From Haplodiscus bocki (Eukaryota), in assembly GCA_965655095.1 (NCBI GenBank), contig OZ296657.1, forward strand, positions 81,902,001 through 81,966,000: DNA of 64,000 nucleotides. The letters are read 5' to 3'. Below are positions 9,610-42,806 of the stretch, piece by piece. Below the pieces are notes generated by a model. That model searched no databases. It had not been told where the DNA came from and saw only the letters and a program-made list of their open reading frames with translations. Position 1 is the stretch's first letter. Each line of letters opens with the position of its first letter. Position numbers and translations under genes: made by a program.

Positions 9610-9855
9610 TTTCACTCAATTCACGTGTACTGACACAGCGAATACAGCATTGCAAAAATGACAAATATGATTGACTTTCGTCCTATCTACTGACCATCAA
9701 CCTGTTTTCAGCTATTAAATACGTAACAATAATACGCAAATGAAGGTGCAAAATATAGATCAAGGGTAATATGATATTGTCGGGAATTTTGCCCCTTTTC
9801 TTCCATACCGTGACAATTTTAAAACCAAAAAAAAATGTGTGCTACAAATCCCACA
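7915..9855 (-). repeat. Putative 3' LTR of element 1 (~1.94 kb, may include a nested insertion)
   Basis: Starts TGTGGG directly after the purine tract and ends ...GTACT directly before TGG; 7915-9609 is repeated at 20268-21962. Boundaries are inferred from PPT and PBS; no TSD available. Confidence 0.6.
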
Positions 9856-9865
9856 TTCCCCCCCT
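9856..9865 (-). promoter_or_regulatory. Polypurine tract of element 1
   Basis: Minus strand AGGGGGGGAA followed immediately by TG, about 350 bp downstream of env. Confidence 0.75.
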
Positions 9866-12496: not shown

Positions 12497-12796
12497 GAAG
12501 GGAAAGTGAGGTAGTTAGAATTGAATGTTAATAGCACAAGACCGTGGACAGTGTAAAGCGTTAAAGCGACTGTTCATTAAATTGGTCGGCAAGTGAATGA
12601 CGGGAAGAGCGTAAGTGAATCGCCAATCAATTCCGATTGCGGTGTCTCGTACCGCGACAATTGTGGAACGGGATTGGTCAATACGAACCATTAGTAATTC
12701 GCTCGATCGGTTCGCGTAATCGGAACGAATGGTGAGCTTGCATTACTTCAGGGGACTTTGCTCATCGGGAAGAGTCATGCCCGAAGTCTATCTTCG

Positions 12797-15700
12797 TTAT
12801 TTACTTTTAATAATAAATTCGTCTAACCCAAATCGCAAAGGCGGTCTCCTAACTCTACTTTCTCGGCCTGTCGGGACATCCCAATCTCGTTGCGATTCAT
12901 TTTGTGAATCATGGTCAGTGTCTAAAGGTCTTTCGGGTGCATCGTTACGCACGGTACTGCTTTCATTCTCGCTATTTCCTGAGTCATCGCCGGGTATTGC
13001 TTCGTATGCGGTCAATTGCGGCGAAGCCGAGCTTTTAATATTCTCACCGTGTGCTGTGTTTTCGGTTTCTGACTCGGAGTCTTGCTGTACGATCTCTGGT
13101 ATCGGTTTGAACGTTACTTCAGGCCTATTTCTCGCGGCTTGCGACTCTGCCGTCGTCGATTCAATCACATGGAACGGGCGGTCTACAATTTCCTCCTCAG
13201 TTTCTATATCGTTCGGAATCTCTTCGTAAATCGGAGGAGGTTGGTGTTTAAGTCTACCGAAGTGTCGTACTTCGGTATCTCCTCGATACGGTTTCAAGTG
13301 GTTAAAATGTACTTTCTGCCACTTTTCTTTAATTCCTCGCTTACAAATCATATAAGTGACCTCACTCGTTCAACTAAGAACCTCGAAAGGACGGAGCCAA
13401 GGCAAATAAAACTTTCTGGACTTCGCTTTGTGAGGTTGGAACAACCAAACAAAGTCTCTTTCTTTAAACGGTTCGCCATGTGCTTTTCTATTAAAAAATC
13501 CTCTCTGTCGCCTTTGTTCGCTTCCCATAGTCATTTGGCTTCTCTATGGATTTCAAATAAGCGTTCGTTTAACTCTTCTGCTTTCTCGCCTATTTTCAAT
13601 CTCGGGTCTCCCGGGTTTTCGGGACAAACAAATCTTTGGGGTATTGCGCTTCCCTCCTGAAAATCAAGGAGTACGGCGTCGCTCCGATAGTTCGGTGAAC
13701 GTTGGTGTTATACACAAAAGTAATATAAGGCAAATACACTTCCCACTCCTGTGGTTTTTCAGCACAATTTTTTGACAGCGTATCAGCAATGACTCGGTTA
13801 AATCTCTCGACCTGCCCATTTCCTTGGGGATGATATGGCGTAGTTCTCGTTTTCTCAACCATAAAATTTCGGCAAATGTCCTGCATTATTTCACTGTTAA
13901 AATTCGAACCTTGATCAGTATGAATCACGTCCGGCGCTCAAAATTTCATGATCCTCTAATCTATTACGGCGCTCGCCACCGTCGCAGCCGTTATGTCTTG
14001 TAAAGCTACCGTTACGACGTACTTCGTAAATCACTCATAACTAAGATATATCTGGCCCTAGACTTCTTGGCTAAAGTTACGGGTCCCAAAACGTCTGCCG
14101 CCATCGTTCTAAACGCTCCGTGAACAGAAAAACTTGCAGTTCCGCTTTGCGTTGACTTCCTGCGGTAGATCTAGCCGCAGAACGATCACAATTAGCAAAA
14201 TGTCTTTCTACGCTCGTTTTAAGCGATGGCCACCAAAATCTCTGTTTTATCTTTGCTAGGGTTTTCTCAACGCCAAATTTTCCACCACTCATTGGAGAAT
14301 CATGCAATTGATACAAAATCTTATTTCTCATTTCTTTACGAATAATCGCTTGCCAGCATTCCTTTACTCGGTTACTAGGCTTCCATTTTCTATACAAAAC
14401 TCCGTTAGATGTCGCGAGATCTTCACAATTACTCCAGAGTTCTAATGCTTCGAGATTTCCCCAAGATTGAACTTCTTCCTTGGAGATTGGGTTCTTTCCG
14501 AAAGTACAATGCGAATCTTCTAACTTTACACCGTATCTTTCCAGTGCACAAATAATGACCTTAATTGCCTGGTCGGCCCGCTGCCTTTCGGGAGTTCACT
14601 GTCGGACCTAGTCCACGAAATTCGTTCTTATACACCTTTAATCATTAACATCTCCTCGGGAATTACGACTGCACAATGAATCCGTTCGCTCGAGATGTTT
14701 TCACGAGAATTCGATGGGATTGGATAAAAATCTTCCTCAATTTCGGGAGTATATACAGTTAAAGTACAGTAAATATCTTGAAAAATCGACTCGAGACAAA
14801 TTGCAACGTTCGTCCACTCTAATCAGTCATCTACAACACAAATTCTAGGCATTGCGAAACACGACATGCCTTTCAACGCCGCATGTGCTCTCATCTCTCT
14901 CAAACACGATTTCAAATCATCATATTTTGCAACGTCGGTATACTTTTCTTTACTCATCAACAAGTAGATATATCTCGAGTGCTCGCTGTCCCAATACACT
15001 AACATTCCTCCAACACGATTCACAGAATCTTCCGTTGGCCTTAAAAGCGAATATCTAAGAACAAATACCGTCATTGGCGATGATTTAAATCGCATGTCGC
15101 CGGAGACGCAAAAAACAAACGAATTAGACGATTCCATAAAAATTCCCAATGCATATTTCACTACTTCTCTCGGAGGATGGGGGATATGCGTTCTAGCGTG
15201 CGCTATTACATGGTCCGTTTCCTTTTTTGAGGAACTACCGTTATTTAAATTTTCTTGAGCACCACCGAGCGCTTTTTCCATCATTTGAATCTCCGGGATT
15301 TGACCGCGCAATTCATCTTCTTCGCCTTCTTTCCATTCTGGCTTCTCATTGGGCCTTCTACTAAGTCCTAAAGCGATACAATGTTCTTCTCCCGGCCTAT
15401 GTACTATTCGGTATATATACTCTTGCATCTTCTGAATCATTCGGAACGTCATTCCGTCGGCGTTTTGTCTAAATAGCCACTGAAGGCTCGCGTGATCGTT
15501 CCTGAATATACATTGCGACCCATAAATGTAAGGACGGAACCATTGCATCGCTTGTACATTGCCTAGCGCTTCGCGTTTCGTTTTGAAGTAATTCACTTCC
15601 GTTTTGCTCAAAACTCTCCGCTCAAAAGCTATCGGACGTTCTTCTCCATCAAATATTTGCGACAAAACTGCACCGAGTGCCGTTTCGCTTGCGTCTGTAT

Positions 15701-17450
15701 CAATCACAAAGGGGTGGCGGAAACTTGGGAACGCTCAAATTGGGGCCTGCAACAATCTAGTTTTAAAAACTGGAACGCATCTTCATCTTCTTTTTCCCAC
15801 GTAAACTTTACTTCTTTACTAGTCAGTCGGTACAATGGTTGGGCGACTTCTGCAAAATTTTTCACAAACTGTCGATAATAATTACAAAACGCCGTCAATG
15901 ATCTCACTTGGGTCACCGTCTGCGGACGTTCCCAGTCTCTGACTGCTTCTGATTTCTTGTGATCTGGTCTAATTCCCGATCTGGTCTTTATCTATTACAT
16001 GGCCCAGATAATTCATTTGAGTTTGAAACAAATCGCATTTCTTGGTCTTCAGTTTCAATCCGGCCGCACGCAATTTTAGAAAAACTTTCTCTAAGTGCTC
16101 TAAGTGTTCCGCTGGCGTCTCACTATAAACCAACAAATCGTCAAGGAAAATTGAAACATGTTCAAAGAGGTCTTCTTTGAAAATTTTGTTGATGAGTCGC
16201 TGGAAAGTTGCCGGCGCCTTCGTCAATCCGAACGGCGTTTTCACAAATTCATAAAGAACACCCTCCGGGGTACAAAAAGCAGTTCTATGTCGGTGTTTTT
16301 CTGCTACTGGCACTTGCCAATAACCACTGGCTAAATCAAGCGACGAAAAATATCCTGCGTCTTGCAATGCGTCTATCGTTTGTCCGATTCGAGGAAGAGG
16401 ATCCGCGTCCTTCGTCGTTATCTCGTTCAACTTGTGATAATCTATACACATTCTCTTCGTTCCGTCTTTCTTGGGGACCATAACAATCGGACTAATATAC
16501 GGACTTTTACTAGGGAAAATGACTTCTTTGTCTAAAATTTCCTTGATTTCTTCTTGAACCGCAGGCAATTTATATGGGGCAAGATTGTCGGGAGCAATTT
16601 CTAAAAAGCGGATTGTCGTTTGTATCTATAAAATGTTCCGTCCCGATCGCAGTTCCGAGTGGATCTCTTGCCAACGCATGAACGTCGCGGTAAATACCAA
16701 TCAAGCTGCTCAATTTTTCTTTTATCTGACTATCTCGTAAGTCCGAGGCGGCTAATTCAACCATTTCGTTCACATATTCGTCATTTTTCTCTAATACTTC
16801 GTAAGAGACAACTGGTTCTTCAATTTTGTTTTCGGTTTGGAGGATGCAAGCAATCTCGTCGGTCGGCGGTCCTGAAGGTCTCCTACGTATAAGAAGACTG
16901 TCGTTTCGTCTTGATCTTTTTTTCTATTTATAAGAGTTTCAGTTTCAATGTCCACTTGACACTTGTTATCGCACAGGATTTTTAATCCAATCAACAAACG
17001 TGGGTACAACTCATCTACTACAATAAACTCATCCGTACTTTTAAGTTTTCCAAACGTAACTTCAGCTGACATCTTTCCGTCTATGGGCATCACGTTGCCT
17101 ATCCGGCCTAACAAACGGTGCGGGTGCGGGTTTACGGGTTTTCTGAAGAAGGACGCCATGTTGCGGCTAATTAAAGTGATACTCGCTCCAGTGTCAACTA
17201 TGGCCCAACAAGGTAGGTCCTCAACTTCATATTTTACCCATATTCCGGGACTTCGTCTAAAATTTCCTGTTGCTACAACACTCGGTTCATCTGTGTTTTT
17301 CGTTTCAAATACAACGGGTTCGTTTCTTTGTAGGATCCTGAGAGATCCAGGTTCGGCGTTACTGGTTTGCGTTTCAAAGTTGGGTGGGAGTGTTTCGTGC
17401 GAGGCGATTGACATGGCGTTCATTTTTAGGGAAAACGCCACCTGGGCCAA
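12797..17450 (-). pseudogene. pol: Pol polyprotein of element 1 (PR-RT-RH-Macro-IN), fragmented
   Basis: Protease AIVDTGAS; RT RMCIDYHKLN, LDLASGYWQV, FLDDLLV; RNase H DTDASETALGAVLSQ; integrase Zn finger LHDSPMSGG...WWPSL...C; core IHTDQGSNF, TTPYHPQGNGQVERFNR. Confidence 0.95.
14745..15170 (-). other. TARG1/OARD1-like macrodomain between RNase H and integrase in element 1
   Basis: SFVFCVSGDM...RYIYLLMSK...YDDLKSCLREMRAH...FAMPRICVVDD*LEWTNVAICLESIF...LTVYT follows the TARG1 pattern (SLAHCISxD...RYIYYLITK...MPRIGCGLDRLxWxxV...ITVY). Confidence 0.85.
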
Positions 17451-17648
17451 AATCTTCGTTCATTTGGTTCCAAGTGGTCTTATCAACGTACCTCGACCGC
17501 GGATTCTGACCGTATCAATTCTCTGAGCTCCGCGACCTATCTCTGTTTGTAACGTGCACTCGATCGCTAAACTGACTAATGTTTTGGGGCGGGTTTTCAT
17601 TTAGTGTGGCAGTTGAGGAAATAAAAATTTCAGGAGCGGAGGTACCTG

Positions 17649-19076
17649 CTACTGTAGCTCCGGCTGAACCCAGTCTAAATTATCGCTTTTGTCCGTTCGT
17701 TTGGGACAGTCGCGCGCAAAATGCCCTAATTCTTTACATTCATAACAATGAGCTCTCGAAGGAGGTGGATTATTTGAACTCACGTGACCGAACGTCTTGT
17801 TTGGAGCGAAACGTGTGTTTGTGTTCTGTGGCGGCTGTTGTTGCGGTTGTGTCTGTGGTAACTGCCCAGAACTGCTGCTGCGAGGATCACCAGCAACTCC
17901 CACCGATACTGGCTGCAAGTCGTTTGTCGATGTGGCCATCACTGCTGTCGTCACTGCTGGCATCTGCGTCATCACTGCTGTCAGCTGTATCAGGTTGTCA
18001 TTCATGCTCTTCATCAGTTGCTGGGTAGCGTCTCCCTGTCTCGCTACCGTTGCGTCAAGCTTCTCTAGTCGATTCGCCACTGTGCCCATTGACGTCTGCA
18101 AGGCTCCAAGTTTCTCCTCCACCGGACCGTGCGAATTCGGAGAACTGGCCCTGACCACATTCTCCTGCTCCCAGTCGTCATAAGAAAATCGCACTCTGTC
18201 TGCTCGTGTCGTCTTGTCTCGCCTTTGGTCTACATCTCTTGCATTTCTCTGGATCAATTCCAGTTTATGTGCACGCTGCAAAACTTCACAAAAGTTACGA
18301 TTTGTTTCATCTTCATACAATTTTTGCCGGAGCCTCGAGTCAAAAAGCCCTTCTAAAAACTGATCACGCAGATCTTTGTCTTTCTCTTCTAACGTTTTTT
18401 CGCAGAGTCCTAACTCACCTAGGTAACAGACGCCTCTGAAAGACTCTTTTAAGGACTCGTTTTTGTTCTGTCTAACTGATTTAAACTCGCTACGGGTCGC
18501 CGTAGGACTCCTATACTGTTGCATTTTTGGTTTAAGAACCTCTAACAAAGTTTCGAAAATTGGGGCTTTTTCCCCTGGTACTTTCTCGATATACTTGCGT
18601 GTAACGGTCTCGAACTCTTCCACAGCCCAGGACGTTAAACAAGCTGTTAGTGCTGCGATAGCTTGCTGATCTGTCCACCCGTTCGTCTTTGCCACAGATT
18701 TGTAATGCTGCACCCATAACTCCCATCTGTTGAAATCTTTCCCAGGGAATTTCTCTGGCTTGATAGGAGACTTCTCGTAAACTGCTTTAGTTTTCCGCTG
18801 CCGCACGCCCAGGTATTCTGCAAAGATAGATTCTTTACTGTCGGAGCCACCTGTCGTACCCAAGTCCCGAAGTCTGAACTGCAAATCTTTCATCTGCAAT
18901 CTTAAGTCATGAGCTGCTCTTCTTCTGTCTACTTTCTCTCCCCTCATGGAAGAAAAGCCAAACCCGAACTTACTCGATCCTGCCCTGGCATCCTCTTTGG
19001 AAACGTCTCCGGTGTTCCCATTGACACCGGGGGATTCCACTTGGTTGAAAGTCTCTGTTTCGTTGTCGGACGCCAT
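17649..19076 (-). CDS. gag: Gag of element 1 (475-aa open frame)
   Basis: Retrotransposon gag pattern (PEKFPG...WELWVQHY...NGW; LRDQFLEGL) and CCHC knuckle CYECKELGHFARDC. Confidence 0.92.
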   Translation of the reverse strand: MASDNETETFNQVESPGVNGNTGDVSKEDARAGSSKFGFGFSSMRGEKVDRRRAAHDLRLQMKDLQFRLRDLGTTGGSDSKESIFAEYLGVRQRKTKAVYEKSPIKPEKFPGKDFNRWELWVQHYKSVAKTNGWTDQQAIAALTACLTSWAVEEFETVTRKYIEKVPGEKAPIFETLLEVLKPKMQQYRSPTATRSEFKSVRQNKNESLKESFRGVCYLGELGLCEKTLEEKDKDLRDQFLEGLFDSRLRQKLYEDETNRNFCEVLQRAHKLELIQRNARDVDQRRDKTTRADRVRFSYDDWEQENVVRASSPNSHGPVEEKLGALQTSMGTVANRLEKLDATVARQGDATQQLMKSMNDNLIQLTAVMTQMPAVTTAVMATSTNDLQPVSVGVAGDPRSSSSGQLPQTQPQQQPPQNTNTRFAPNKTFGHVSSNNPPPSRAHCYECKELGHFARDCPKRTDKSDNLDWVQPELQ

Positions 19077-20253
19077 AATAATAGTGAACGGATAAGGGAA
19101 GTTTCTTAATAAAGATATTGAATAAATTAAGAGTCAATAGCCCACGAAGGAGAGCCACTGTGGAAATTTTGGGAATGTAACTTCCAACTCGATTACACCG
19201 TGGTACCACTGTCCACAAGACGGGGGACGGGCCGAGATCCACAAAATATTTATAACTCCAAAATTAATCAACTTGAGATTCAACTTCGGAGGCGGTGGGG
19301 TTCATCTGCAAAGTATATGCCTAACTCTGTAATTTCTACCGTTCAACTGAGAGGGGTGTCTCGTAGCTCTTGACTGTTTTAGGAAATCGAAGAATCGTTT
19401 TGCTTGCTGAAGACTTGAATTTACTTAGTCAATCCTCACAAACAAATTTTCTGAGATAATAAATACAATAATAACAGAATAATAATTGTTGATAGAATGA
19501 TAACAAGGGATAATACCACTGATTCGCTTTCGCACATCAATTTACTATCGATTAAAGACTTCAATAAAACGTTCCAATCAATTAATAGCATCGAATAACT
19601 TGGAGGCAATTTAATACTACAACCTTCCGTTGATAGTCAGTAAATCTCTCACTTATGCCGGAATTGGATCGAACACGAAAACCACAACTCAACAATTATT
19701 AAACGAAGAAATTCAAGTCTCACTAGGCTTTCGAGCGAAGAACTAATCGATTTCAACAGTCCCGGACTGTTCAACAATACTTCTCAAAATTACGATTTCC
19801 CAACTTCAGTCCTCGACTAAGTTGAAGGAAACAACAAACAAATTGAGCAGAGTAGCAACTGCACGGCAATTCAACTCATTTTCTTTTGGCAGCATATAGA
19901 GACGTTATTTTCGCTTATGGTACTCTTGGTTTCGTATTTTTACGTTGGGGCTATTTTCGGCCTTCTTATTATTCATCCGGTTAACAGTGTCCCAATAGTT
20001 TGAAAAATGACTTATCAACTTTCGTTGGTTATTTCGTTTATCTCACTTTGGTACAATATTCATCAGCTTTAGTACTACTCGGTGTTTATTTTCTTTGCTT
20101 ACATCAGGTAAGATTAATTGACTTTGGTCGTATCCACTGGCAAAACGGGGGTGGTAAAGGTGAGTAAGAAAGAACCTCTTCGGTTCCATTCGTCTATGTC
20201 ACCATTTTGATTGACAACCTCTTTCTTCGGTTGATGTGTCAGCTATTCTATTC

Positions 20254-20267
20254 GTCGCGCGTGACCA
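20254..20267 (-). promoter_or_regulatory. Putative primer-binding site of element 1 (second copy at 7901-7914)
   Basis: Minus strand TGGTCACGCGCGAC directly after ...GTACT, 1.2 kb upstream of gag; cognate tRNA not identified. Confidence 0.45.
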
Positions 20268-21962
20268 AGTACGTCCAAAATAGGTGACTAAATTATCTTC
20301 CCTAACCCTTCCCATCATATTATCCATGCAAAAACAAATGACCAAAGAAAGGCGTAACTTTTGTCCAAAATTCAATATTCAATTGCGTCTAGCATAAACG
20401 TCAACAAAAAACAAGTGAGCACATCGTTACACGTGGTTTTTAATGCGGTTTTTGGCAATGTATACTTTGTGATAGTTATTTTTATTATTCATGGTCAAAA
20501 AATGCGATTTTCTGAAATTAGTCAAAATTCCATATCTGAAAAATCGATTTTTGGCCACTTTGAGGTCATTTTGCTCTACGTAAAAGTTTTTCCCAGGGCG
20601 GGGGTTTTTTCCCCTGTAGTACATTTGAAGCGGAGTCTTTTAACGAAAAGATGAGCTCTGTAGCTGGTCTCAAAAAAAAGTTATTCAATTTTCCGCAAAA
20701 GTACCGGTTTTGGCCATTTTGGCCTGCCTGGGTCCATCTTCAAAGTCGATTTTCTCAACGTACAGGCAAAATTTCAAAAAATCCTCGGTTGTTTTCCTGG
20801 AAATGCTTGTTAGGAACATTGTGTTAAATTTTGAGTTTTCTATCTTCAAAAACGTGCGAGGGGGTAGCCGTTTTGCAAGTCGACATTTTCCGAGTTCCGT
20901 GATTTTAGCTAGTTGCAATTTTGTGGGGCGACCATTTATAGCTTGCTATGCTTGTTCTATTAAAATTTTCCATTTTTCCTAATAATACGTTTTTGTTTGT
21001 TAGTAATATGGTTGTTTTCTATTGGCTATTCGTTAACTAATAAGCGAAAAACTGCGAATTTTGACGATTTTAGGCTACTTTGGGCATTTTTTGGCAATTT
21101 CTTCCTAAATTTTCCGGAGTGACTAAATATAATAAATTCATCTTTTCAGGGACATTAGTCCATTCAATTATCTTCCGTTTGAGATTAATACGAGCCTTTT
21201 TTGATGCGTGGTTTGGTCAGAAGAAATTTTTAACTGAACTCACTTTGGCAATTTCTGGAGTGCACTTTTCGTTTCCAACAATTTTTCAATATCTTAAAAT
21301 CGTCCGATTTTGCTCATATTCCAAACTTAAGCTTTGCAATGAATGTAATATACAATGGTGAAAACCGTTTGTCGATATCTTTTTTCGTCTTTGAGAAAAA
21401 AGCAAGCAAACATTGGGGAACCTTAAAAAAACAGGTCTAATTTTTAGCAGCGAGAGCGTAAATAAGCTAATACGTGGGGTGGTGGCGGCCGTGCGCGTGG
21501 TCAAAATTCACTCCAAAAGCACTCCTATTGTATTCCTTTTGTACTCATAAAACTTTCTTTCCACTCCACTTTCACTTTTATACGCTTCTAACATTGCAAC
21601 TGAACTGTGAATTCGCGGTTTGACCATTTTCCGGACCGTAATAATTTTCGTCTTAATTTTTCGACAACTTTTAATTTTCAAAATGCGGTGAAAATCACCC
21701 AACTTGCTCGTCTTGGAATGTAGTTTTGACTGGTGAAAACCGTTTTGCTCTATCTATAACAGTCTTCGAGAAAATGGACGTCAAAGTTAGGGTTCGAATT
21801 AGACCAACTTTTAAATTTTTTGCTGCTGTTGCTTTGCTATTTTAACACACGTGACAAGGTCGTTCCAAAATAACTAATACTTGCTTCGCGGCTTGTTCAC
21901 ATTCCAACGTAGTGCTTATTCAGTTCAATATTCACTTTTCACGTATAAATCTCGCTGCTAAA
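20268..21962 (-). repeat. 5' LTR of element 1, missing its first ~245 bp
   Basis: Matches 7915-9609 but lacks the equivalent of 9610-9855; abuts LINE-derived sequence. Confidence 0.6.
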
Positions 21963-22049
21963 CTTTTACGTCATCAGCATAGAAGAAAACCTCCGATCTT
22001 AAGCATCCTTCCTTTTAGTTAAACATATGAACAAAACTGTTGGTCCAAC

Positions 22050-24620
22050 GATCATCCTTGCGGCACTCGATTCGTCAGGACTGCGCAAGAGAAGAAACTC
22101 ACTTGCACTGCAACCCCCTGTTTTTTATTGCTTAAAAGAGAGGAAACCCAATCAATTGTTTTGTTTCATCTAGATTATCTAGATTTAGTTTGTGAGACCT
22201 GTTTTTTTGGAACACAAACGAGGAATTGCTGAAATCAAACTTTAAAACGTCTACTTCGTTGACTTAGTCCATTTATGACGTCCAGATATCCAGTGTTATC
22301 TATTTTCATCTTGCCAAAACCGTATCTTTGTGGAATGGCCTGGTATAAATCAGAACCGTTTTTCTGATATAATCTTATTTCGATTTACGAGCTCAATTAA
22401 GTGCCTCCTATTGTTTTTCTTCAGTAGTCTTCGACAAGTTGAGGTCAATTTCACAGGTCTGTTGTTGTTCAGGGTGTTTTCTTTTGTTTATCAACGTAAA
22501 ATTAGCACACATCCAATTAAAAGGTTTTCGACCGTTTTTCCACGATTAACAAAAATTTGGCCCAGAGCTGAGAATTTATAATCCATTGGTTGGTACTAAA
22601 ACTACGAGCTTAGGTTATTTAGCCACATTGACGTTGTAACACGCAGTTACATGCAGTCTATCGAGTCAACCAGGAATATGTGTTTATGCTTTTTAATGAC
22701 TTTTTTGGAGAGACTGAGTTAAAGGTTTCTTCAGGAGCCTACTTTTTCTTCAAATGTGTTGCGCATGTTCAGTTGCTCAAACCCAGCGTACATTATTCAG
22801 AGTCCCCGTAGTTTCCTGTTAACGTGGTTTCGAAGACTTTTGGTTTCGAGTTTTCGGTAACGCATCGTTTGTTATTCGTGTCATAAAGTGCGTTTTCTTG
22901 ATATCTTCCTCACTTCGTTTCAAACTTGAGAAAAAAAAGTTTTTATGGCTTGTTGTTTCTGCTGAAGTTTATAGGCTTCTTTTTTTTAAAAAAATGGGAG
23001 AGTTGTTTCATTGCCCATTGGTACTTCACTGTGTTGTGCTGGCGAATTTTTGTTCGGACAAACTTTTCTGTCCCTCGTAGCAATCGGCTTCTGAAATTGT
23101 TCCAGTTTTCTGTGTTGCCATGGCCCTATCAGAGCGAACTTTTCTTTTAGCGCAAATTTTTGAGTAATTTTCTGTGCTGTAAGTATATCGAACTTTTGTT
23201 CAAACTTCAAATCTTACGTTGAAAATCGCTTGAAGTAGGGCTTGATGGCCCTTTTTCAGAGAAAAAATGCATTGATTTATGGAATCTTTCTCAAGTTTGT
23301 CCGATAATCGCATGTCCTAAATTGAAGATTCACACTGTTTTTCGAAACTCGTTGGTGGATCAGTTTCATGCCGAAAGTATGAGTCTTTATATGCCTCATG
23401 AAGCTGCTGTTCTTCACTGCTCCCGTTGTTGATCATTTTGCTAAGCTTCCAATCTATGTAGCAAATTGTCAAGTTCCCAAATCCACTGCTTTCCATTTGG
23501 TTATATTCAATTTTTTTGAGGATTTTGGGCGGTGTTCAGTGATTTTCGGTAGTCGAAGTTGGTTTGCGTAAAACAGAACCTCCCGAAATCTTGTTCTTTT
23601 TTCACTTTTTTCAAAATAACAGCTTCCTGTGACTTCCTCAGAATCATTTTTCTTTTACGTTTGTGTACGACTATTTGTTTAAATTTTTCAATAGGGTACA
23701 TAATTTTATCTTCCTTGACAAAAAAGCAAATTTTGCAAGGTCCAACTTAGTGTGATGACCTCTTTCGTCTCCTTGGTTAAGCCTGTTTAAATGATTTTAC
23801 GTGCGCAATGGCGTTTTCCTAATTCAGTTGTGGTTCCATTCCCAGCAATTTTCCATTTTTAAAGTCCTAACGTTTTCAAAACAGAATGTTAATTTTTTGT
23901 TACTTTGCTTCTAGCACTTTCTTCATTATACTGCCTTATCAGTCACTTTTTGCAATGTAAAGGAAGGTTCCGGTTTTTATTTTGTGAATTATGTTGCCAT
24001 TAGCACTGGAGCCGAGCATATTCAAGTCGTTTTGGGCTCCTAACAGGCGTGGTTCTCAATCACCAAAGATCCTCGAGGTTGATTGTCAGTTTTGCGACCG
24101 GTTTGGTTATGTGGTGTGCATCTTTTAATTTTTGAATTGTGATCAGTCTTAGTTTGGTTTTTGTCATGCTTCAGGAATTTTTCACAGCCGGTGGAGATGC
24201 CAGTTTTTTTTGTGTGTCAACCTAAACGATTCCCTTTGTTTGGTTTTTCAGGTTCATGTCCTCATTGAAACAATCTTCGACACTTTTGCATAGCTTTCTT
24301 GAGGTTTATCCCTACGCTTTTTTGTGCTGTATCACGTCCCATTGTTTTCTTTCTTGTTGCGCTCGGTGTTAGAAAAACCATCCTGCAAGAGTAATGCGAA
24401 GTTTAGTTGAAGTTGCCATGCATCTTCTTCCACACAGCCGCCACTCAGATACTGCATGGTCCTTGATCTTCTTTCTGTTCATGAAAAAGTAGAAGTCGTC
24501 CATTAGCGTCCTCGCAGAGTTGATGATTGTGGCCAAGATAGTTTTAATTTTCAACCCCGGATTTTCAATAGTTTTTCCCCTGCTTACTAATAGCATCATT
24601 TGACATTTTTCAGGTGAGGG
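22050..24620 (-). mobile_element. Heavily decayed CR1/L2-type LINE (ORF1 end, APE, start of RT)
   Basis: Manual translation: NNRPVKLTSTCRRLL...NKIISEKRF*FIPGHST and VDVLKFDFS (RT), and HLNRLNQG...KLDL near 23750-23800 (APE-like). Boundaries approximate. Confidence 0.65.
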
Positions 24621-24699
24621 GAGGTCAGGTGCTCTTGTTGCAGGTGCCTCGTCGAACAACTCTTACGTGTTCGCTTATGCTTATATCCATCGGTGACTC

Positions 24700-26700: not shown

Positions 26701-27856
26701 GATCAGTTGGTGTCGTTTTCCTTGTGCGCAATTCTCGAAATTTTCAAAATTGATTTCTCTCAGCTTCATTTTCTGATGAATTTCCCACGTAGAAATAGAA
26801 AACTTCCATCGAGGTCTCCACTGAGTTTATCGTTCCGTCCAGTGTGTCCCTGATTTTTTTGAGTTCCTTGTTTGAGGACTCTACTGGTTTTTTTTTGTTT
26901 TCCATTAGCTTCCTCACTATTGATGCGGAAGGTCCACAGCTCCAATTAACAGAGGGTTTTGCTGAGTAGTCCTTGACTACGGGTGAACTATCGACTCATA
27001 TTAAACAGTGGTCTCCACAATGGTTGTCTCATTGTGTGAAGCGATCGAAAAAATCACCAAAAGCTCACTGAAGTGCTCATATACTCGGTTAGAATCAGAA
27101 ATTTGTTTCGTTGTTCTTTCCTTGAGAACGACGTAAATTAGAGAACACTGAGTACTGACCGCAGTTGAAAATTCTGGGGAAGACACCAGATCAGAGATCA
27201 AAATCACCAAACTCACTTGATATTGATTTTTTTTCAAGTCTTTCTTCAGTTCTATTCACGCGGAGCTTTGGGTTTCTTCGCTTCTGGGATTGTTTCTTCC
27301 CGCCGTCTCGGCGCCTTTGCACCATTAAAATGCGATGATTTTTTCTTTTTCAAGCAGAGTTCCAACGAACTTCAACTTGAGATTAACACACGGGTCTCTT
27401 CCGACCAGATTCCTCATGAAGTACTGCTATTGACGCTATTTCATCGAACTACTTTTCTTTCACGCAGGCATGATCAGACTTTGCCTAGTTTTCACCTGCT
27501 CAGAAATGTTTTAGGCTACTTCTTTCTAGCAGTATTCAAAAGCTTTACTCCGGTGGCTATACTTCAATAAGAATGAAATCAACTCGTTGAATGAATTAAT
27601 TTTGTTTTTCTGGGACCCTGCTTCGTGATAGTTTTGCTTGAAATATTGTGTGCCAGATGATTAGGCCTCTTTTCGCTCTTCTCTCCTTTTTCTAGGATTA
27701 GTTTCAAACTTGCCAGATTGTTTTTCATGATTGTGTTAATGGACAGATCAGGATAGGGATAAATTGAATGATGGGGGGGGAAAGTAGCTGGTGTCGATGG
27801 CTACTGCATTTTTTGTAGAGGTCAGAGCCGGCCCCGATAAAAAGAGGATCAGCAAT

Positions 27857-28183
27857 TGTCATGTACTGAAACATTGCTTTAGTTGAGGACAGATGAATTT
27901 GAAACTTAGACTCAAAATTCCTTGATATATTATTCAACTTTAAACCCTTTTAACATTTTAAACTATCTTAAGTTTTTATTCATAATGTTTTTTTGATATT
28001 GATGAAAGCTGATTTCAAAATCAACAGCTCAGAAGAGTAAAAATTGAAATATTGGAAAGGTTCTGCCAACTAACCAAAAAGGATTCTGAACCATGCATCC
28101 AAGAATCTTGTCCGCTTGCCAATAAACTGCTGTCCCCAAAAGTGTGAAACATACATCAAGACCTGAAAGAGAGGTATAAAACT
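27857..28183 (+). repeat. 5' LTR of element 2 (327 bp)
   Basis: TGTCATGT...GAGGTATAAAACT; roughly 85% identical by eye to 42486-42806. Confidence 0.93.
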
Positions 28184-28197
28184 TGGTGACACTTCGG
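28184..28197 (+). promoter_or_regulatory. Primer-binding site of element 2 (possibly tRNA-Trp)
   Basis: TGGTGAC directly after the LTR; only 7 nt agree with a typical tRNA-Trp 3' end. Confidence 0.55.
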
Positions 28198-29285
28198 AGA
28201 CGATCGTCAAATTGCAAACTGCAGAAAAACTATCCTCTCTGGGCTGAAAAGCCCGATTGTGCTTCCTATCAACCAACCACTGTGATCCCTTCACGCCATC
28301 CAGCAAACCCAGTCACATCATCCATGTCCAGATGCAGTTCCATGTTGACGGTCCAGATCCATGGAGCTGCACACCTTGAACAAAGAACTGACGGCAGTAT
28401 CATTTAGCTTTGACAAACATTGTAAAACTGTCTGACGTGAGTTCTATGTGTCCTGGAAAAAAATATCAAAAAAACACTGGAAATCAATACCATGTTTGGA
28501 TTGCAATGACTTTTTTGGGGGAAATTTTCGAATTCATTGTGGAGCAAAAACCTTGAATCGCAGAAAGCCGCAATTTAGCATTCTTATTCAGCATTCAATT
28601 CAATGGTGTTCAATTGATGTTCAGTTTTGGACAGGACAACGACACGACATTGGGATTTCAATTTTCATTCAGATGTTTGATGTGATGCTTCAATTCAATC
28701 ACGAACATTCGGTGGTCTTGGTAACTTAAAGGCCAGTTTAGATGTAGTAAATTTTTTGGAGCTTTAAGTGTTTCATTTTCGTTCAATTCGCTTTCATTCA
28801 GCTTGATACGCCTTTTTCTTTCAAGGGTCGCTTTCAAGACTGTTTTATTTTAAATTCTTCATGCTTTCAACACTGGTCTAAACAAATTCTTTTTTGAAAA
28901 AATTCTGAGTTTTCATTTTACATTTACAAAACCCGAGTTGGAACCAACTCTCAATCTTTGAAGTGATTTTAATTGTTTGATTGGGTGTCGCTGTAGTTGT
29001 CATCTTTGTTTCCTTTTCGTCTGTGGATCTTTCCACGGTGTTTACAAAGAAAAAGTTTGATTGATAAACTCTTCACAGAACTTTCTGCAGCAACTTTTTG
29101 CCATGTTTTGCAGATTATTTCTTCTGAAAAATAACATTTCTTTTTCACAGAGTAGTTTTTTTTTCCACGATTATTTCTTATCGCACAGTTTTTAGTTTTC
29201 GTTCTTCTTTCTTTTATTTTAACCTAAGTTAACCCCATCATTAATCTTCTGAACTTAGCTTAACCTTAACTCTAAGTCTTTAGTT

Positions 29286-30609
29286 ATGACTCAACCTCAA
29301 ATTACGCTTAATCCGTTTTCGGGTTCAGAAAGAGAAAAATTTTCCGAGTTTGAACTCCGTCTTCGAAGTATTTTGGCGGTAGCTGCGCTTCCTGCCAATC
29401 AGCAAGAAAACTTTTTACAATTGCAACTCCGAGATGCTGCCTTACAATTTTTGCAATGTTTGTTCCTTGCAGGACGTCAAAATTTGGACCTTTCAATAAC
29501 CATTGTTCGAGAATGGGTTGTATAATCCTCAATTACAAGAATTACATGTCCTCAAACTCGAAAATATGAAAATTGGTTCGAAAACAGACACGCTTGAAAT
29601 TTTTCTGAGGCTGTTACAAACAAAAGCAACGAAAGCCTATCTGGATCCACATCCTCCGGCTATTGCTCCAAATGACCCACATGCAACGGATGCGGCTGTT
29701 GAACAAACTCCGTTTGACCAAGACACAGTGCGTCGCGCAGAAATATAACGTTCTGCTCAAAAGGCACGTTCAGTTCAAAATAGGCGTCAATTGATCAAAA
29801 ATAAGCCCAGATGGCTACGCGCAAAGTTGATGGAGCAACTTTTTAAAACTACAGTAGAAGCCTTATGTATTTTAGCGCAAAAACAATTGTCAATTCATAA
29901 TCCTTGCAAAACAGACGATCCTGTCATGGACGCATATAGCGAAATGGGCATTCGGTTACAGATACAATTAATACCTCATTGACAAAATTGAGTTCTGGTC
30001 AAGAAGCAATGGACAAGAAATGAATCGAAATGTCAAAAAAATTTGACAAACTAAACTCTAACTTAACGAACCAATTTAACAAATTTCAGAAAAATCAAAC
30101 ACAACAGCCCCAAAGGGGCTCTTTTTTGCAAAAGTGTGGTCAAAACACAAATTATTCCAGAGGTAAAAACCGCAAAAAATTTAGAGGCCGCTTCCGCGGT
30201 AACACTCGAGGATTCAGAGGACTTCAACCGATTTATCCACGACCTCAATGGCAGAATCAGAACCATAGTTCATATACGCCACGGCAACAGTGTTATCAAA
30301 ACTTTCCCGAGCAAAACTCAAATTCCTTTCTTTCAGCCACAGTCGTCCAATTTCTAACCTCCGAAACAAAACTAAAGGAATCGAAAATTTGAGAATTAAA
30401 ACTCACAGCCTCAGAATTGAACTTTTTAACCGTAACCATCGTTTGAAGCCTTTACTCCATATCCTAACTTTTTGCCTTAAACACGACAAACTCAGATCAC
30501 CTGTCATAAATATGGCTATCCTAATCACTTAGCGCCAAACTGTGCAGTACGAAAAAATCCTCCGCGTCTTGGAGCACAAAAGCCTTTCAACCAAAATCCA
30601 AAAAACTAA
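29286..30609 (+). pseudogene. gag: Gag of element 2, fragmented
   Basis: ITLNPFSG...FSEFE...FLQLQLRDAALQF; RG-rich tail; degenerate knuckle CHKYGYPNHLAPNC (30502-30543); ends CCA AAA AAC TAA. Confidence 0.8.
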
Positions 30610-30611
30610 AT

Positions 30612-33600
30612 ATGCAGCACAAAGATCAAAAGCCCAAACATGTAAAGAAAGTCCAGTCAAAGAAGCCAGACACCTGTAAAGTACTTTCTCACATAGTTCT
30701 GCCAGACATGTGCACTGTTCTCTCTTTAGAAGGAGAAAACCTCTCTTATGTTCGTTTGAAAATTTCTAACCAATTTAAACGAAGAACCTTAATTGATACA
30801 GGCTCTTGTGCTAATGCTTTACTTGAACCTTTATTTAAAGACCGCAACGTATCTAATCCTAAATCTTCAACTTTTGAAGAACTTTTCACTAATTCTGTCA
30901 GACTGGCTTCTGGTTATAGAGTTTCGACTGATAAACAGGCAAAATTTTCAGGTCGGACCTCACGATTTCCAGGATAGTTTTTTATTTTTACCGACAAAGA
31001 ATAGTGTTTTTCTCTGAAATCCTTTTTTCAAACAAAATAATAATACAATTGATCCAGAAAAAAAGTTTGCTACAATTACCAAATTCAACAGTACAGCTGA
31101 ATCAAATTTGCTTGAGTAAGGTAAAGAACGTTACACGAAGAAATTACCGAACATTCCTTTGATCTCGACCAAGAAAGTACAAATAGTGTCTCAGTCGCAA
31201 GTACTTTTAGAATGTATTTTGGCCAAATTATCTGACCAGTACCAATCGTGTAGTGGATTAGGAATTCCTAGCAACCGCTACGAAGATAAATGCAGTTTTG
31301 TTCTTACTCCGTCTCTTAGCAAGGTTGATGATAAAGGAAAACTCATCGTTTCAGACATAAATCTTTCTGATAATCAAATCACGTTAAATTATAGAACCGA
31401 AAAACGCATTTCGAAGTTTTGAACGAAGCACAGGCTGATAACTTGATTGAAATTAATCCTCAGTTGATTTAATTAGCAAAAACGCGGAACCCGGTTGATT
31501 TTGAAGGCGTACTGGATCAATTGATTCAAGATTTTCATTTTAAAAAATTTGACACACCAACAAGTCGCCCGCCTCCGGTCTACTCGAAACTCTGGTTTTC
31601 AACTCCAGCGACGTGTGGTGGTTTTTCTAATATAACACCTCTCCAACGATCAGTTTTTGATCAATTTTTGCAACTTCAGAGACAAGAAAAAGTGGATCCA
31701 AAAAACAGTAAGACTGATAGAGCGGATTTTCTGAAAAATCTTCCATGGGATACTTGTGTCCTAAGTGCTGACCGGAAAAGGCAACTTGAGGACTGTTTGG
31801 TTGAATGCCACGATGTGTTTGACAAACATAGCTTTGATGTAGGCTATAACACAGATCTCAAAATTAAATTAACACCAGAACACCCACTTCCGCTGTAAGT
31901 GCAATGTTCGCCAGCTTCAATCCACCTACATGATGAAATTTTGATTCAACTTGCATTGTTACAATGTTTTTACATTATATCAACGCTCTCACATTCCAAA
32001 TACAGTAGGCCGACATTTGTTCATGGCAAGTCATCTGGTAAGCTGAGAAGTTTTTTTGACTTACGTCGCGTGACCCATCTCCTACGCCATGATTATTTAA
32101 ATGGTAATTTTCCGATTTCCATTATGACGGATGCCAAAAATCACTTCGCCGGAAAAACTTTGTTTTGCAAATTAGATTGTTCACAAGCATACTATTGTGT
32201 TCAAATGGTAGATGACTTTTCAGTCCATTTTTTGGCATTCAGCTTCGCCACTCGAACATTCGCCTACAATTTCTTAGCTCAAGGCTCGAATAAACTTGTC
32301 AGGGGATTCAGTTCATTTGTCGAGCACTATCTTGACCCCTGTTTAGCAGCTAATGTATGCAAGCAATTCATCTATGATAATGCTGCCGGAGTATATTCTT
32401 TTGATGAAATGATACCTGCTTCACGAAAAAATATTGATTGTTTGAGACAATCGGGTCTGGGGCTTTCAGCGCATAAATGTGAAATTGGAACAACAAAATG
32501 TAACTACTTTGGTAGTATAAATAACCCGAAAGGAATTTCAGCCCAAAATGCAAAATTTTGACGCGACTTTTTTGGCCCAATTAGAATGCCAAAGAAAGGA
32601 AAACAAGTGAATCGCCTAATTGGTTTTGTGCAGGTTTTCCGAAACTTTTTTCCCAATCTTGGTCAAAAAGTTTTGCCATTTTGCAGACTTTTACGGAAAA
32701 AAGTAATTTTACAATTACAAATGATCATCATGAATGTTTCAACACTTTAAAACCTGATTTACCACTTGTTACCTGTTTAACGTTATGTTTAGCTAAACCA
32801 GGCCTCCAGTATATCATCCTTTGTGCTGATAGTTTCCATGGTACTGGATTTGTGTTAATGATTGAAGATTACTGGATTGATCAAAAAGGTGAAAAAGAGA
32901 AAATTACGCTCCAGTATGTTTTGGTTCGAGACATTTTACAACAACTCAATAGGAATTTTCAGTCTTTTATAAAGACTTTCTAGCTCTGTATTTTGCCTTA
33001 GAACATTTTGCACACTTCATTTGGGGCGCCACAAGACCTGTCCTAGTTTTTACTGACAATAGAAGTCTGACGTTTTTTTTCAGTCTGAAGGCATTCATCC
33101 ATCCTAATGGAATTGCTTGGACAGAGTTTTGTTTTTCAATATTCTATTTGCGCATATTCCTGGAAAAGCAAACTCTGCTGCTGTTTTTCTTTCACGCCTG
33201 CCAACGGATCTTAAATCAGCTTTGCAGATAAAACTCACGGATTGCGCACCTATTCGTGAAAATGAAATTTAAACGCAAACAAAGGCGCCAAATGTCTCTT
33301 TTTCGGACAATATTGAGATTGCGCCATTTTTTGAAGAACTACAACCTCCAGTCGATGAGCACTTCATCACTCAATTGAAGGCACACAGCCTCTATGACCA
33401 ATTTTTAGAAAAACAACCTAGTGACGCGCTTAGGATATCCATATAACGGGCTTTTTCTAATTTTCATCAGTCCCACAGGTTAACCTGATCGAAACTAACA
33501 TTTTTGAAGACATTTCGAATGATTTACCAAATCGAACACAAACCTTTGACTTAGTCCAAAAACAACATAACGATGAAGTTTTACGAGAGGTAAAGTCATG

Positions 33601-36452
33601 AAAAAATTGGGTAACCCTGATGAGTTGCCCAATTTACCGTTAGCATTACGAAGGCATCGAAAACATTTCAACCGCCTAGTTGTCGAAACTGATTTTTTAT
33701 ATAGTCTATTTTATGAAGAGTGTCGTAAAGTAAAATACAAACAAATCTGTGTACCCAAAACGCTTTGGCGTGATGTTGTCCTCCACCTCCATACTTCAAA
33801 AACTGCCGGAAAGTCTGGCATTGCCAGAACAGTTGAAGAATTTCGATAGAGTTTCTATTTTGCAAATGGTACCGAAATTATCATTTCCTGTATTAAAAAC
33901 TGCCTCGCTGGCCTACAACTTAAACGCGTACCGTCAAAGGTTTTGAAAAAACTGCTACAGCCAGTGTCCTCCCTAAAATCGTATCCAGCTGAAACAATTC
34001 AAATTGATCTGGTGACCAGGAAAATCCCCAGTTCACCGTTATGTGTTGACAGCTTTTGTTGTCTTTACAAATTACTTGTTTGCTGTCCTTTTGACAAATG
34101 TCAGAGCAGAGAAAAGTGCGCTTGGACTTACGTCAATCTTTTTGCGACATAGTTACTCGCCAAAAAAACTTTTTTGACCTGGGTACCTCGTTTATATCTG
34201 AGCTTGTGCATAATTTAACGAAACTGCTTGAAATTCAGCTAGAGCATGCCAGTTTAAAACACCCACAAACGGTGGGCTTTGTTGAACGCTCTCATAGGGC
34301 GGTTAAACGTATTCTAAAGTTGACTACTAATGAACAGTGGAACAACTGGTGTAAATGCGTACAGTTAGCTACTTTGATTCACAACACGTCCTATCATTCA
34401 GCAATTGGCTGTAGTCCCGCAGTTTCTTTCGACATGCGTTAACCATTAAAACGACTCAATAATCTACTAGTCAATAACACTTCGATTGAACGATTTTCTC
34501 CGAATAGTGAATATGTGATCGCATTACAAGATGCAATGAACAAGAAAGTTTCTGAAACCAAATTTATGTTGACCGGAAAGTACAACAAAAGACCGTTCCT
34601 ATTATGATTGCAAAGCGGAAGCCAAACCGTTCTCTCTCTTCTCATACTCTCTTTTACTTAACCTAAAATTGATGACACAGTCTGATTTTGCGAGTAAGTT
34701 GTTGCCAAAGTGGCTTCCTCTTTGTCGTATTGAGAAAATTTTGACAAACTATAATTACATTGTTCGCAAGGTTGGCACGAACTACATACAATGTGTCCGC
34801 CGAATTTGCTTGAATCTTGTGACTCCTGAACGTCGCATTGATAATCTAACGGTCAATAATGTCAAAAATTTTCAAAGAGCCTCATCGTTGTGCCACTATC
34901 GTTGTAAACCAACATTGTTTGAAGAATTTCTTCCTTGTTTGTGGGAACTTCCCAGCACCGGGGTTACAACACAAAATTAGACGGAAGGTTCGCCACCTGT
35001 CACTGTCAGTTTCTTTTTTTCGATCGCTCATGCGCCTGTACCAGTCCGACTGGCAGCTGCACCGGCTCCAATACCTCTACTTGCTGCGGTGGTGGCCCCA
35101 GTTTTGTTGGCTTTGACGCCGCAGATGTTGAAGCATCGGAGCCGCAAGTTCCAGAGCAACCTTATCTTCCTACTCAAGATGTTCGATTTTCTGACAACTC
35201 AGATGATTCTTTTAGTTTTGATGCTTTATTACACACTCGAACGTTACACAAAAAACCTACCTACATAAATTTAGGCGCGCAGAGTCTACCAGCCGAAGCA
35301 ATACCTACTTACCGGCAATCTCCACTGCCCCTTTTTCACGTTCGCAAAGTTCCCATGCAACTAGCAGCGCTGGCTCCAATAAATGTTGAGTGACTCTCCA
35401 ATAAACGTTTCTAATTTGTTTGAGTTTGAACAAGGACCACTCCTGGAACCTCAACCTTCGGAGTTCATGCCTCCTGTTGATCAAGGTAACCTAAGAGTTT
35501 TCACAACCCGTCTTAGTCACACTGCAGATTGCGACAGCTCAGTTGATACTACGCTTAAGAAATTCAAATACCTTTGTAATTCTCCTACTGCTCTTACATG
35601 TGAAAGCCAACCGGCGCAATCTTCTAGTACAAATTTGCCCAAAATCTTATGAACTTCGACCGAGACTACCACCTCGTGATTATCATGAGAAAATCATTCG
35701 AAACAAAATACAGCCCAAAATGCAATGTATTCCAATTAGTGAGCCAGCTGTGTCATCGAATCAGCTGACACAAGGTCAGAAACCTAATGCAATCACTGAC
35801 TCGTGCCAACAAAAACGAACTCTGTCAAGTGGTTTTGAATCAGAAGCTGACCATAAAGTACACAACACTTTTACACAATTTAAGCATTCAGCTCAGTCAA
35901 CGCCACCTGGGTATTGAGGGCATCAGAAAGCAGTACGCAAGCGCTACTCATTGAAAAATTTAAAAAAAGATTATCAAGTGCCAATGACGTCAAGGCAGTC
36001 ATTGACTCGAGCGTACATCCAAATTCTTGTTTTTGCCAGTCGAATACTCTAACAACTACTACATCCATGGCACACTGTGTTTCTTCTGACTTCGCCATGG
36101 GCAAAAAACTAATTTCGGCGTTTGTTTGTAGTTACCTTGAGCTCCAGCAGATGCGCAGAAGGTCTTTCAATCTTTTTTCACCATGATCTTCAGTAGCCTA
36201 TTTCGATCAACAAAATAATCGATATCTTTAGAACTTAGAGCCAAAACGACACTTTTTTCAAAAATTTACCTATGAAACACTCGAATTGAACCACCAAGCG
36301 TTAAGGTACCTCTTGAAGCGCCACAATATACAAGAACTTGCAATTTGGTTGTGGATATGATCAGTTACAATGGCCAACAGTTTTTTTCATTTTTATTCAA
36401 AGTTATTTCGTGTTCCCACCCGACAATAACAATCTTTCAGCCTACACGTTAG
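30612..36452 (+). pseudogene. pol: Pol of element 2 (PR-RT-RH-IN-linker-Macro), heavily disrupted
   Basis: Protease LIDTGSCANA; RT KLRSFFDLRR, KLDCSQAYY; RNase H CADSFHGTGFVL; integrase DLGTSFISEL, KHPQTVGFVERSH, HNTSYHSAIG. Confidence 0.9.
36010..36452 (+). other. TARG1/OARD1-like macrodomain at the C-terminus of element 2 pol
   Basis: SMAHCVSSDFAMGK...RYL*NLEPKRHFFQKFTYETL...IQELAI, frameshift, FGCGYDQLQWPTV...ITIFQPTR*. Confidence 0.88.
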
Positions 36453-42463: not shown

Positions 42464-42485
42464 GGAAGAGTTTGAAGGGAAGCAG
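42464..42485 (+). promoter_or_regulatory. Polypurine tract of element 2
   Basis: GGAAGAGTTTGAAGGGAAGCAG immediately before the TG of the 3' LTR. Confidence 0.7.
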
Positions 42486-42806
42486 TGTCATGTGCTGAAA
42501 CATTGCCTTAGTTGAGGACAGATGAACTTGAAACTTGGAGTCAGAATTCCTTGATTTTTTATTGAACTTCAAACAATTTTAACATTTCAAACTATCTTGT
42601 TCATTCACAATGTTTATTTAATTTTGATGAGAGCTGATCTCAAAATCAACAGCTCATAAGAGTAATGAGTGAAATATTGAAAAAGGTCTAAACTATTCAA
42701 AAAGGATTGTGATCCATGCCTCCAAGAATCTTGTCCGCTCGCCAATCAACTGGTGTCTCCATTAGTGTAAAACATTGATCAAGACCTGAAAGAGAGGTAT
42801 AAAACT
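42486..42806 (+). repeat. 3' LTR of element 2 (321 bp)
   Basis: Homologous to 27857-28183; followed by TSD GCAAT. Confidence 0.93.

Follow-up and report, generated by a model that had tools for sequence, protein, structure and literature searches.

TARG1-class macrodomains at different positions in the Pol of two Ty3/Gypsy elements from Haplodiscus bocki

Why would two distinct retroelements in one genome each carry, in different parts of Pol, a domain related to enzymes that remove ADP-ribose? The question is raised by a 64,000-nucleotide stretch of Haplodiscus bocki DNA (NCBI GenBank assembly GCA_965655095.1, contig OZ296657.1, positions 81,902,001 to 81,966,000 of the forward strand), which is called the window here and numbered from its first letter. 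An initial annotation had read both macrodomains as ADP-ribose erasers that protect reverse transcriptase (RT) products or integrase. Viral macrodomains are well known to antagonize immunity based on PARPs, a conflict documented mainly in vertebrate RNA viruses and bacterial DarTG, and long terminal repeat (LTR) elements of invertebrates are as a rule considered only with regard to control by piRNAs. If true, a selected TARG1-type domain in Gypsy Pol would extend the PARP conflict to these elements; the domain is small and soluble, hence assayable. Sources given below by PMC or bioRxiv number are cited for the parts of their text that were available.

Element 1 occupies positions 6803 to 21965 on the minus strand, with LTRs 98.3% identical over 2810 nt, and element 2 occupies positions 27857 to 42806 on the plus strand, with 327-nt LTRs that are 85% identical and a 5-bp target duplication. 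Both present LTRs, gag, the order protease (PR), RT, RNase H (RNH), integrase (IN), and Ty3-like RT and integrase sequences, which are the features of Ty3/Gypsy (Metaviridae) elements. The top PDB match for relatives of either element is Ty3 Gag-Pol, Ty3 Pol being the closest solved relative of P0002, a family-1 protein, in the PDB sequence search (families 1 and 2 are those of elements 1 and 2, and proteins are given by their labels). As the initial annotation had stated, the elements differ in LTR and RT; the two sets of LTRs have no DNA match and the RTs are 23% identical over 181 amino acids, and between relatives of the two families RNase H is 29% and integrase 31 to 33% identical. In element 1 gag is open and PR, RT, RNase H, and integrase are broken, as judged by Pfam on the window open reading frames (ORFs). 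Element 2 is far more decayed, and the aligned Pol stretches contain 13 stops in element 1 and 21 in element 2, the latter number being inflated by out-of-frame parts. By sequence, these are two dead copies of two distinct, possibly errantivirus-like Ty3/Gypsy families.

The macrodomains sit where they had been placed. That of element 1, a 142-amino-acid read with one in-frame stop, lies in the stretch that joins RNase H to integrase; it shares the frame of RNase H (ORF 14826-15734) and is upstream of the integrase zinc finger (14080-14595). That of element 2 follows integrase and a linker of about 370 amino acids; aligned with intact relatives, it is split over three frames (approximately 36020-36345, 36341-36394, and 36378-36449). 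The corresponding linker in the relative P0009 has 373 amino acids, with 12% Pro and 12% Ser.

The only PDB sequence matches of either domain are chains of human TARG1/C6orf130, with E values of 1.6e-13 for element 1 and 6e-4 for element 2. Pfam Macro matches neither window copy nor the family-1 relatives and reaches its cut-off for the family-2 relative P0011; these misses may explain why the domain has gone unannotated. For P0013, of family 2, TARG1 scores E = 1e-19 versus 1.8e-5 for DarG. Structure models of the macrodomains of P0002 and P0011 have a predicted local distance difference test (pLDDT) score of 91 and 95, respectively, the lowest-confidence blocks of the P0002 model being the two ligand loops. 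The P0002 model aligns with TARG1 with a template modeling (TM) score of 0.87 and a root mean square deviation (RMSD) of 2.6, and the P0011 model aligns with ADP-ribose-bound TARG1 with a TM score of 0.88 and an RMSD of 1.6. Of the searches that had been proposed, that by structure returned the Macro fold, and in the fold searches with both models TARG1 chains hold ranks 1 to 8, with DarG next. Sequence matches and modeled folds together assign both domains to the TARG1 class, ahead of DarG.

Human TARG1/OARD1/C6orf130 (ALC1-like class; PDB 4j5q, 4j5r, and 4j5s) is therefore the best sequence and fold match for both families, and equivalents of its Lys84/residue-125 dyad are present in the retroelement domains. 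It differs in being a stand-alone cellular enzyme, whereas here the domain lies inside a retroelement Pol, at about 30% identity, and family 1 lacks the pocket glycines. The bacterial DarG antitoxin (PDB 5m31, 5m3e, and 5m3i; PADLOC) has the class, fold, and catalytic lysine in common with these domains but lacks the acidic dyad residue, which both retroelement families possess. Conversely, both families match only profile positions 5 to 153 of 329 in the PADLOC DarG model (E = 1e-20 for P0011), with no match to the DarG C-terminal domain, and no ADP-ribosyltransferase that could be a DarT partner is found among the 88 window ORFs scanned. Of the initial label "TARG1/DarG-type," only the first half was kept, as DarG ranks lower in every PDB sequence and fold comparison.

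The window copies are broken, and their natural relatives show what the intact modules look like. A search with the element 1 domain retrieved 7 proteins among 39 candidates and one with the element 2 domain 10 among 344. In P0002 and P0006 of family 1, which represent clusters of 512 and 207 member sequences and were the only members inspected, RT, RNase H, the macrodomain, and full integrase share one ORF, and in P0013 of family 2 RNase H, integrase, a shortened linker, and the macrodomain do so; P0009 and others of family 2 have the full linker and the domain. This agrees with an in-frame Pol domain. Dead copies in a genome drift neutrally regardless of how the active lineage evolved, so a ratio of nonsynonymous to synonymous substitutions (dN/dS) near 1 among copies, proposed earlier as refuting, is not a valid test, and subfamilies were compared instead. 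Between P0002 and P0006 the macrodomain is 67% identical, versus 47 to 53% for the flanking linkers, and free of indels (141 of 141 positions aligned). Two pairs of family-2 subfamilies give 58% for the macrodomain versus 34% for the linker and 41% versus 29%. Conservation above the linkers points, by this proxy, to purifying selection at the protein level, and these comparisons indicate that the macrodomain is a genuine, selected Pol module in both families.

Whether the two domains could erase ADP-ribose depends on the ligand pocket, for which TARG1 numbering was taken from PDB alignments (residue 125 is Glu in the review PMC7050489 and Asp in the PDB chain). Catalysis by TARG1 uses Lys84 with residue 125 (PMC7050489), and its substrates are ADP-ribose on acidic residues, nucleic-acid ends, and thymidine (PMC7050489 and PMC8883491). 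The changes G43E, I44E, and G123E abolish ADP-ribose binding and activity, with RNA binding surviving, and the same pocket recruits TARG1 to poly-ADP-ribose (PAR) at DNA damage (PMC5928194). Mechanism varies within the ALC1-like class, since DarG works without the acidic partner and SCO6735 without both residues (PMC7050489).

Among 119 domain rows from outside the two families, G43 is present in all 119, G123 and K84 in 118 each, and D125 in 115. Counting rows with a residue at the position, family 2 keeps G43 in 17 of 21, K84 in 21 of 22, G123 in 17 of 18, and D125 in 16 of 18, with Leu at position 44; in the window copy of element 2, G43 is replaced by Lys. Family 1, in contrast, has G43 in none of 7 rows and G123 in none of 8 (all 8 have Val), with Pro, Ala, or Leu at position 44, and altogether lacks H32, G41, G43, I44, and G123. 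The subfamily of P0006 has Glu at the G43 position, which is the published inactivating change. The dyad persists in family 1 (K84 in 6 of 8 rows and D125 in 7 of 8), and the replacement residues K41, A90, V123, and D124 are fixed across its subfamilies, so that the loops look rebuilt rather than decayed. In the other element-linked rows G43, K84, G123, and D125 are kept in 9 of 9. The proposal of an ADP-ribose eraser thus fits family 2, with its pocket and dyad signature intact, and does not fit family 1. On these residues the family-2 domain is quite likely to be an active TARG1-like hydrolase, whereas family 1, without the near-invariant G43 and G123, is probably not a canonical eraser and has probably lost canonical ADP-ribose binding. 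In the window pair a canonical pocket can be contrasted with a naturally rebuilt one, family 1 being a rare variant of the TARG1 class. The domains also differ in charge, being basic in family 2 (K+R 16, D+E 8) and slightly acidic in family 1 (K+R 15 to 17, D+E 18 to 21).

How often has such a domain entered LTR elements? A profile of both families collected 4266 proteins at E <= 0.001 among 1.84 billion, and the best 150 of the 4266 were taken further. Rows P0098, P0107, P0140, and P0168 were set aside before analysis, so that vertebrate-type TARG1 is probably absent from the trees, and the short rows P0051 and P0053 lay outside the Pfam scan. LTR-element Pfam domains occur in 6 of the 144 distinct proteins scanned. 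P0032 falls in family 2, and P0025 and P0094 are distant family-2 relatives. Five further separate LTR-element proteins from this set carry the domain, at up to four positions: after RNase H in P0159 (RT-RNH-macro-IN) and P0121 (RNH-macro), at the Pol C terminus in P0162 (RNH-IN-linker-macro), after the integrase zinc finger in P0067, possibly a deleted copy, and before the protease in P0138 (macro-protease). P0159 and P0169 are named proteins of Rhynchophorus ferrugineus (red palm weevil), the former being a Gypsy Pol with a canonical domain after RNase H. The weevil domain is placed, with 99/86 support, inside a group of proteins that lack retroelement Pfam domains. It is 48% identical to a cricket protein of this non-retroelement type and seems to be a separate capture from a host gene family of insects. 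A word search with it found 3 proteins among 126 candidates and was no broad survey, and an Atlas search with an RNase H-macro protein gave only RNase H clusters, at 0.75 to 0.76.

Trees were built under LG+G4 from approximately 140 columns and 50 to 78 of 158 rows, with groups named after the trees had been seen, and some of the rows counted as outside may be unrecognized element fragments. FastTree places both families near the midpoint, IQ-TREE separates them without firm support, and the family-1 stem is very long (1.41). A single clade of families 1 and 2 is not rejected (approximately unbiased [AU] test, p = 0.466). The two domains are 21 to 22% identical to each other, below the median of each to its outside homologues (30% for family 1 and 34% for family 2), which disfavors a recent relocation of the domain between the elements. 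A single origin of all element-borne domains, weevil row included, is rejected (p = 0.017; 0.029 without family 1), and at least two captures overall are thereby indicated. It is not rejected when the weevil row, P0057, and P0077 are left uncounted (p = 0.227), nor is a single clade for the RNase H-macro architecture (p = 0.195).

Eight of the 144 matches, cellular homologues (P0045, P0047, P0060, P0078, P0080, P0093, P0106, and P0131), have the TARG1-like domain fused to DNA ligase and/or a LIG3-type BRCT domain, and others have it fused to HMG, UDG, PWI, UBM, or CUE domains. P0024 (762 amino acids) is built of the domain's C-terminal half, repeated seven times in tandem, and is possibly an assembly artifact.

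Macro domains are noted in some non-LTR elements and Helitrons, and the well-studied alphavirus and coronavirus macrodomains are of the MacroD type; they are much more remote from the retroelement domains, to which the alphavirus macrodomain chains listed in our fold searches are 9 to 16% identical. In positive-strand RNA viruses, including insect viruses with a Macro_Poa1p-like domain, the macrodomain is embedded in a polyprotein, as it is here, but these viruses have neither the DNA stage nor the integration of the window elements. A thrips virga-like virus has an annotated Poa1p-like macrodomain (bioRxiv 10.64898/2026.10.09.758028). That macrodomains are known in some retroelements, as had been cautioned, is borne out by fish epsilon-like endogenous retroviruses (ERVs), some of which carry extra ORFs encoding proteins with macro domains (Basta et al. 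2009, as cited in PMC4977317). These ERVs are likewise env-bearing LTR elements with a captured macro domain; by the description in that review, on which the comparison depends, they are Retroviridae with the domain in additional ORFs, whereas the window elements are Ty3/Gypsy. TARG1 itself is patchy in invertebrates, with TARG1-like genes in viruses (PMC4245714), and the term "transpos" is absent from the available text of that source.

Errantiviruses with F-type env (PMC13524379) resemble the window elements in gag, in PR-RT-RNH-IN order, and, as a lead, in an F-type-like env, and they too have additional domains both in the bridge from RNase H to integrase and after the integrase. The domain kinds given in that 2026 survey are mini, pseudo-RNase H, and chromodomains, with five bridge domains left labeled "Other." "Macro" occurs 0 times in its main text, as available, and matches in the visible part of its supplement are species names; a motif search of the supplements gave no match and is uninformative, as the cells show only 400 characters. 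The available part of PMC6338049, on accessory domains, makes no mention of macrodomains. We found no description of a TARG1-type domain in Gypsy Pol in the literature searched, a scope that excludes most subscription journals, Repbase reports, and bioRxiv supplements. Capture of macrodomains by mobile elements is thus known, and a TARG1-class domain in Gypsy Pol is apparently new, as far as this search reaches.

What might the domain do? The Pol of Ty3/Gypsy elements is taken into the particle together with Gag and is processed there. As a piece of Pol, the family-2 domain should be carried in with it and would stay on a flexible leash at the integrase C terminus, where it could strip ADP-ribose from acidic residues of element proteins or from phosphate ends of RNA or cDNA and so blunt marking by host PARPs. 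The family-1 domain would have begun as an eraser, after which both phosphate-binding loops were rebuilt; it would now most likely be a noncatalytic or respecified interaction module in the RNase H-integrase bridge, not a canonical eraser. Repeated capture by selfish elements and the signature kept in all nine other element-linked rows fit such a conflict role. The reading that the captured TARG1-class domain is a selected accessory module of Pol with a counter-PARP role, active in family 2 and rebuilt in family 1, has in our judgment an even chance of being right. Several points weigh against it. The folding alignments contained TARG1-like homologues, so that the fold match is not independent of the sequence match; the signal of purifying selection is a proxy and not a dN/dS value; and within family 1 the macrodomain, at 67%, falls below RT and RNase H (84 to 88%), which indicates moderate constraint. 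Integrase core and macrodomain share one ORF in just 1 of 10 family-2 matches, with a shortened linker, and the module is rare, as the 6 of 144 scanned proteins attest. The Lys/Asp dyad kept in family 1 could mean retained catalysis, and no paper on PARP catalytic restriction of an LTR retrotransposon was found in the literature searched. A bolder extension, that TARG1-class domains are a recurrent, so far unreported counter-defense module of animal Ty3/Gypsy elements, gained in several captures at up to four Pol positions, that invertebrates have a PARP-based restriction layer acting on the particle or preintegration complex, and that the eraser of family 1 has become a decoy or now hydrolyzes another kind of ADP-ribose linkage, is tentative and rather improbable as a whole.

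The main rival makes the family-2 domain a reader of mono- or poly-ADP-ribose on chromatin that would direct integration toward DNA marked by PARPs (damaged, open, or germline-active), with hydrolysis as a secondary matter. The chromodomain at the integrase C terminus of chromoviruses holds an analogous position (PMC13524379), the macrodomain ends a long disordered integrase tail both in family 2 and in the unrelated P0162, and the recruitment of TARG1 to PAR works through the same pocket (PMC5928194). A pure reader would not need the catalytic dyad, which is kept in nearly all rows, and a place in the RNase H-integrase bridge or ahead of the protease suits targeting less well; we consider the explanation unlikely. 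That both domains are active erasers, as first annotated, agrees with the dyad equivalents kept in both families and with the mechanistic latitude of the ALC1-like class (DarG and SCO6735), but the five pocket residues lost in family 1 include two that are near-invariant outside, and Glu changes at three of them abolish binding and activity of TARG1 (PMC5928194), which makes it distinctly unlikely.

A housekeeping role without conflict would have the domain bind element RNA, clear the ADP-ribose caps that TRPT1/PARP repair chemistry leaves on tRNA or cDNA ends, or ease integration-gap repair. The RNA binding of TARG1 is independent of the ADP-ribose pocket (PMC5928194) and would still give family 1 something to do, basic residues prevail in the family-2 domain, and the ligase and BRCT fusions of cellular homologues lie in the same direction; yet the family-1 domains are slightly acidic, and most Gypsy Pol proteins manage without the domain (there is no macro label among the bridge classes in the available PMC13524379 supplement), so this is quite improbable. 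Finally, a host sequence captured in frame and slowly decaying as a neutral passenger would account for the broken window copies, the pocket residues lost in family 1, and the insertion points in tolerant, low-constraint linkers. Conservation above those linkers in three subfamily comparisons, the indel-free P0002/P0006 alignment, and the catalytic signature intact in all other element-linked rows make it very improbable.

Both elements carry an env-like gene, as had been claimed. The element 1 gene encodes a signal peptide, an RYKR site, and a transmembrane segment, and that of element 2 is homologous to it (tblastn E = 1.2e-8, a score reached by 0 of 200 shuffles). The Atlas neighbors of the element 1 env are Fusion_gly/Baculo_F clusters at 0.88 to 0.89 (scores below 0.9), to be taken only as a lead; Pfam names neither env, and the PDB search gave no match for that of element 1. 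As a lead, both genes look like class I F-type fusogens. The features of the two elements are listed in Table 1.

Table 1. Features of the two LTR elements in window coordinates (PBS, primer-binding site; TSD, target site duplication)
Feature	Positions	Strand	Basis or remarks
Element 1 3' LTR, ~3.05 kb	6803..9855	-	98.3% identical to 19158-21965; start inferred from polypurine tract then TG
Element 1 env-like gene, frameshifted	10401..12514	-	Signal peptide near 12463, RYKR site, transmembrane segment near 10490
Element 1 integrase (H2C2, core, p58 C-terminal) and tail, with frameshifts and stops	12800..14595	-	Pfam on ORFs; tblastn of P0002
Element 1 TARG1-class macrodomain, remodeled ligand pocket	14745..15170	-	In-frame stop 14823-14825; PDB match
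Element 1 RT, RNase H, and linker to macrodomain	15171..16625	-	RVT_1 E=1.4e-33, RT_RNaseH E=5.9e-25
Element 1 aspartic protease	16794..17459	-	Asp_protease_2 E=1.9e-7
Element 1 gag, open 494-aa frame, zinc knuckle	17652..19133	-	zf-CCHC E=6.5e-6
Element 1 PBS-like TGG stretch (19157-19140) and 5' LTR (19158-21965)	19140..21965	-	LTR identity
Element 2 TSD GCAAT, 5' LTR (27857-28183), PBS-like TGG stretch	27852..28200	+	85% identical to 42486-42806
Element 2 gag-like and protease-like remains, broken	29286..31200	+	Position and by eye (zinc-knuckle-like, DTG motifs), three-frame read
Element 2 RT and RNase H, broken	31899..33458	+	RVT_1 E=4.6e-6, RT_RNaseH E=1.4e-6; tblastn of P0013
Element 2 integrase and long Pro/Ser-rich linker, broken	33601..36009	+	tblastn of P0013 and P0009; P0013 domains; composition
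Element 2 TARG1-class macrodomain, Pol C terminus	36010..36452	+	Two stops and two frameshifts in window copy
Element 2 env-like gene, broken	39725..41730	+	Signal peptide near 39728, fusion-peptide-like hydrophobic stretch near 40186, transmembrane segment near 41672
Element 2 polypurine tract, 3' LTR (42486-42806), TSD GCAAT	42466..42811	+	GCAAT on both flanks

The LTR of element 1 is unusually long, and its 5' copy is missing about 240 nt at the outer end, of which no copy occurs elsewhere in the window. In element 2 the gag-like and protease-like remains have no Pfam match, and the gap of about 3.3 kb between pol and env (36453-39724, plus strand), in which neither Pfam nor a three-frame read recognized a domain, may represent the remnant of an accessory ORF or else an insertion nested in the element. 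The 6 kb between the elements (21966-27851) have a strong AT skew, no ORF longer than 190 amino acids, and no match to either Pol.

The 64-kb window contains no tRNA genes. Positions 1 to 3320 (plus strand) hold broken ORFs of low GC content (28%), with motifs that we take to be those of a family-B DNA polymerase (Polinton/Maverick-like); Pfam and PDB searches gave no support for this. About 0.9 kb from element 2, an uninterrupted ORF of 401 amino acids (43692-44897, plus strand) encodes a PCYT1-like choline-phosphate cytidylyltransferase (E = 7e-82); its 5' part contains a 21-bp unit repeated six times in tandem (43814-43939). Farther on, approximately 50100 to 58800, lies a tandem array of four units of about 2143 bp, mostly 94 to 99% alike, with a diverged partial copy at approximately 46300 to 47700.

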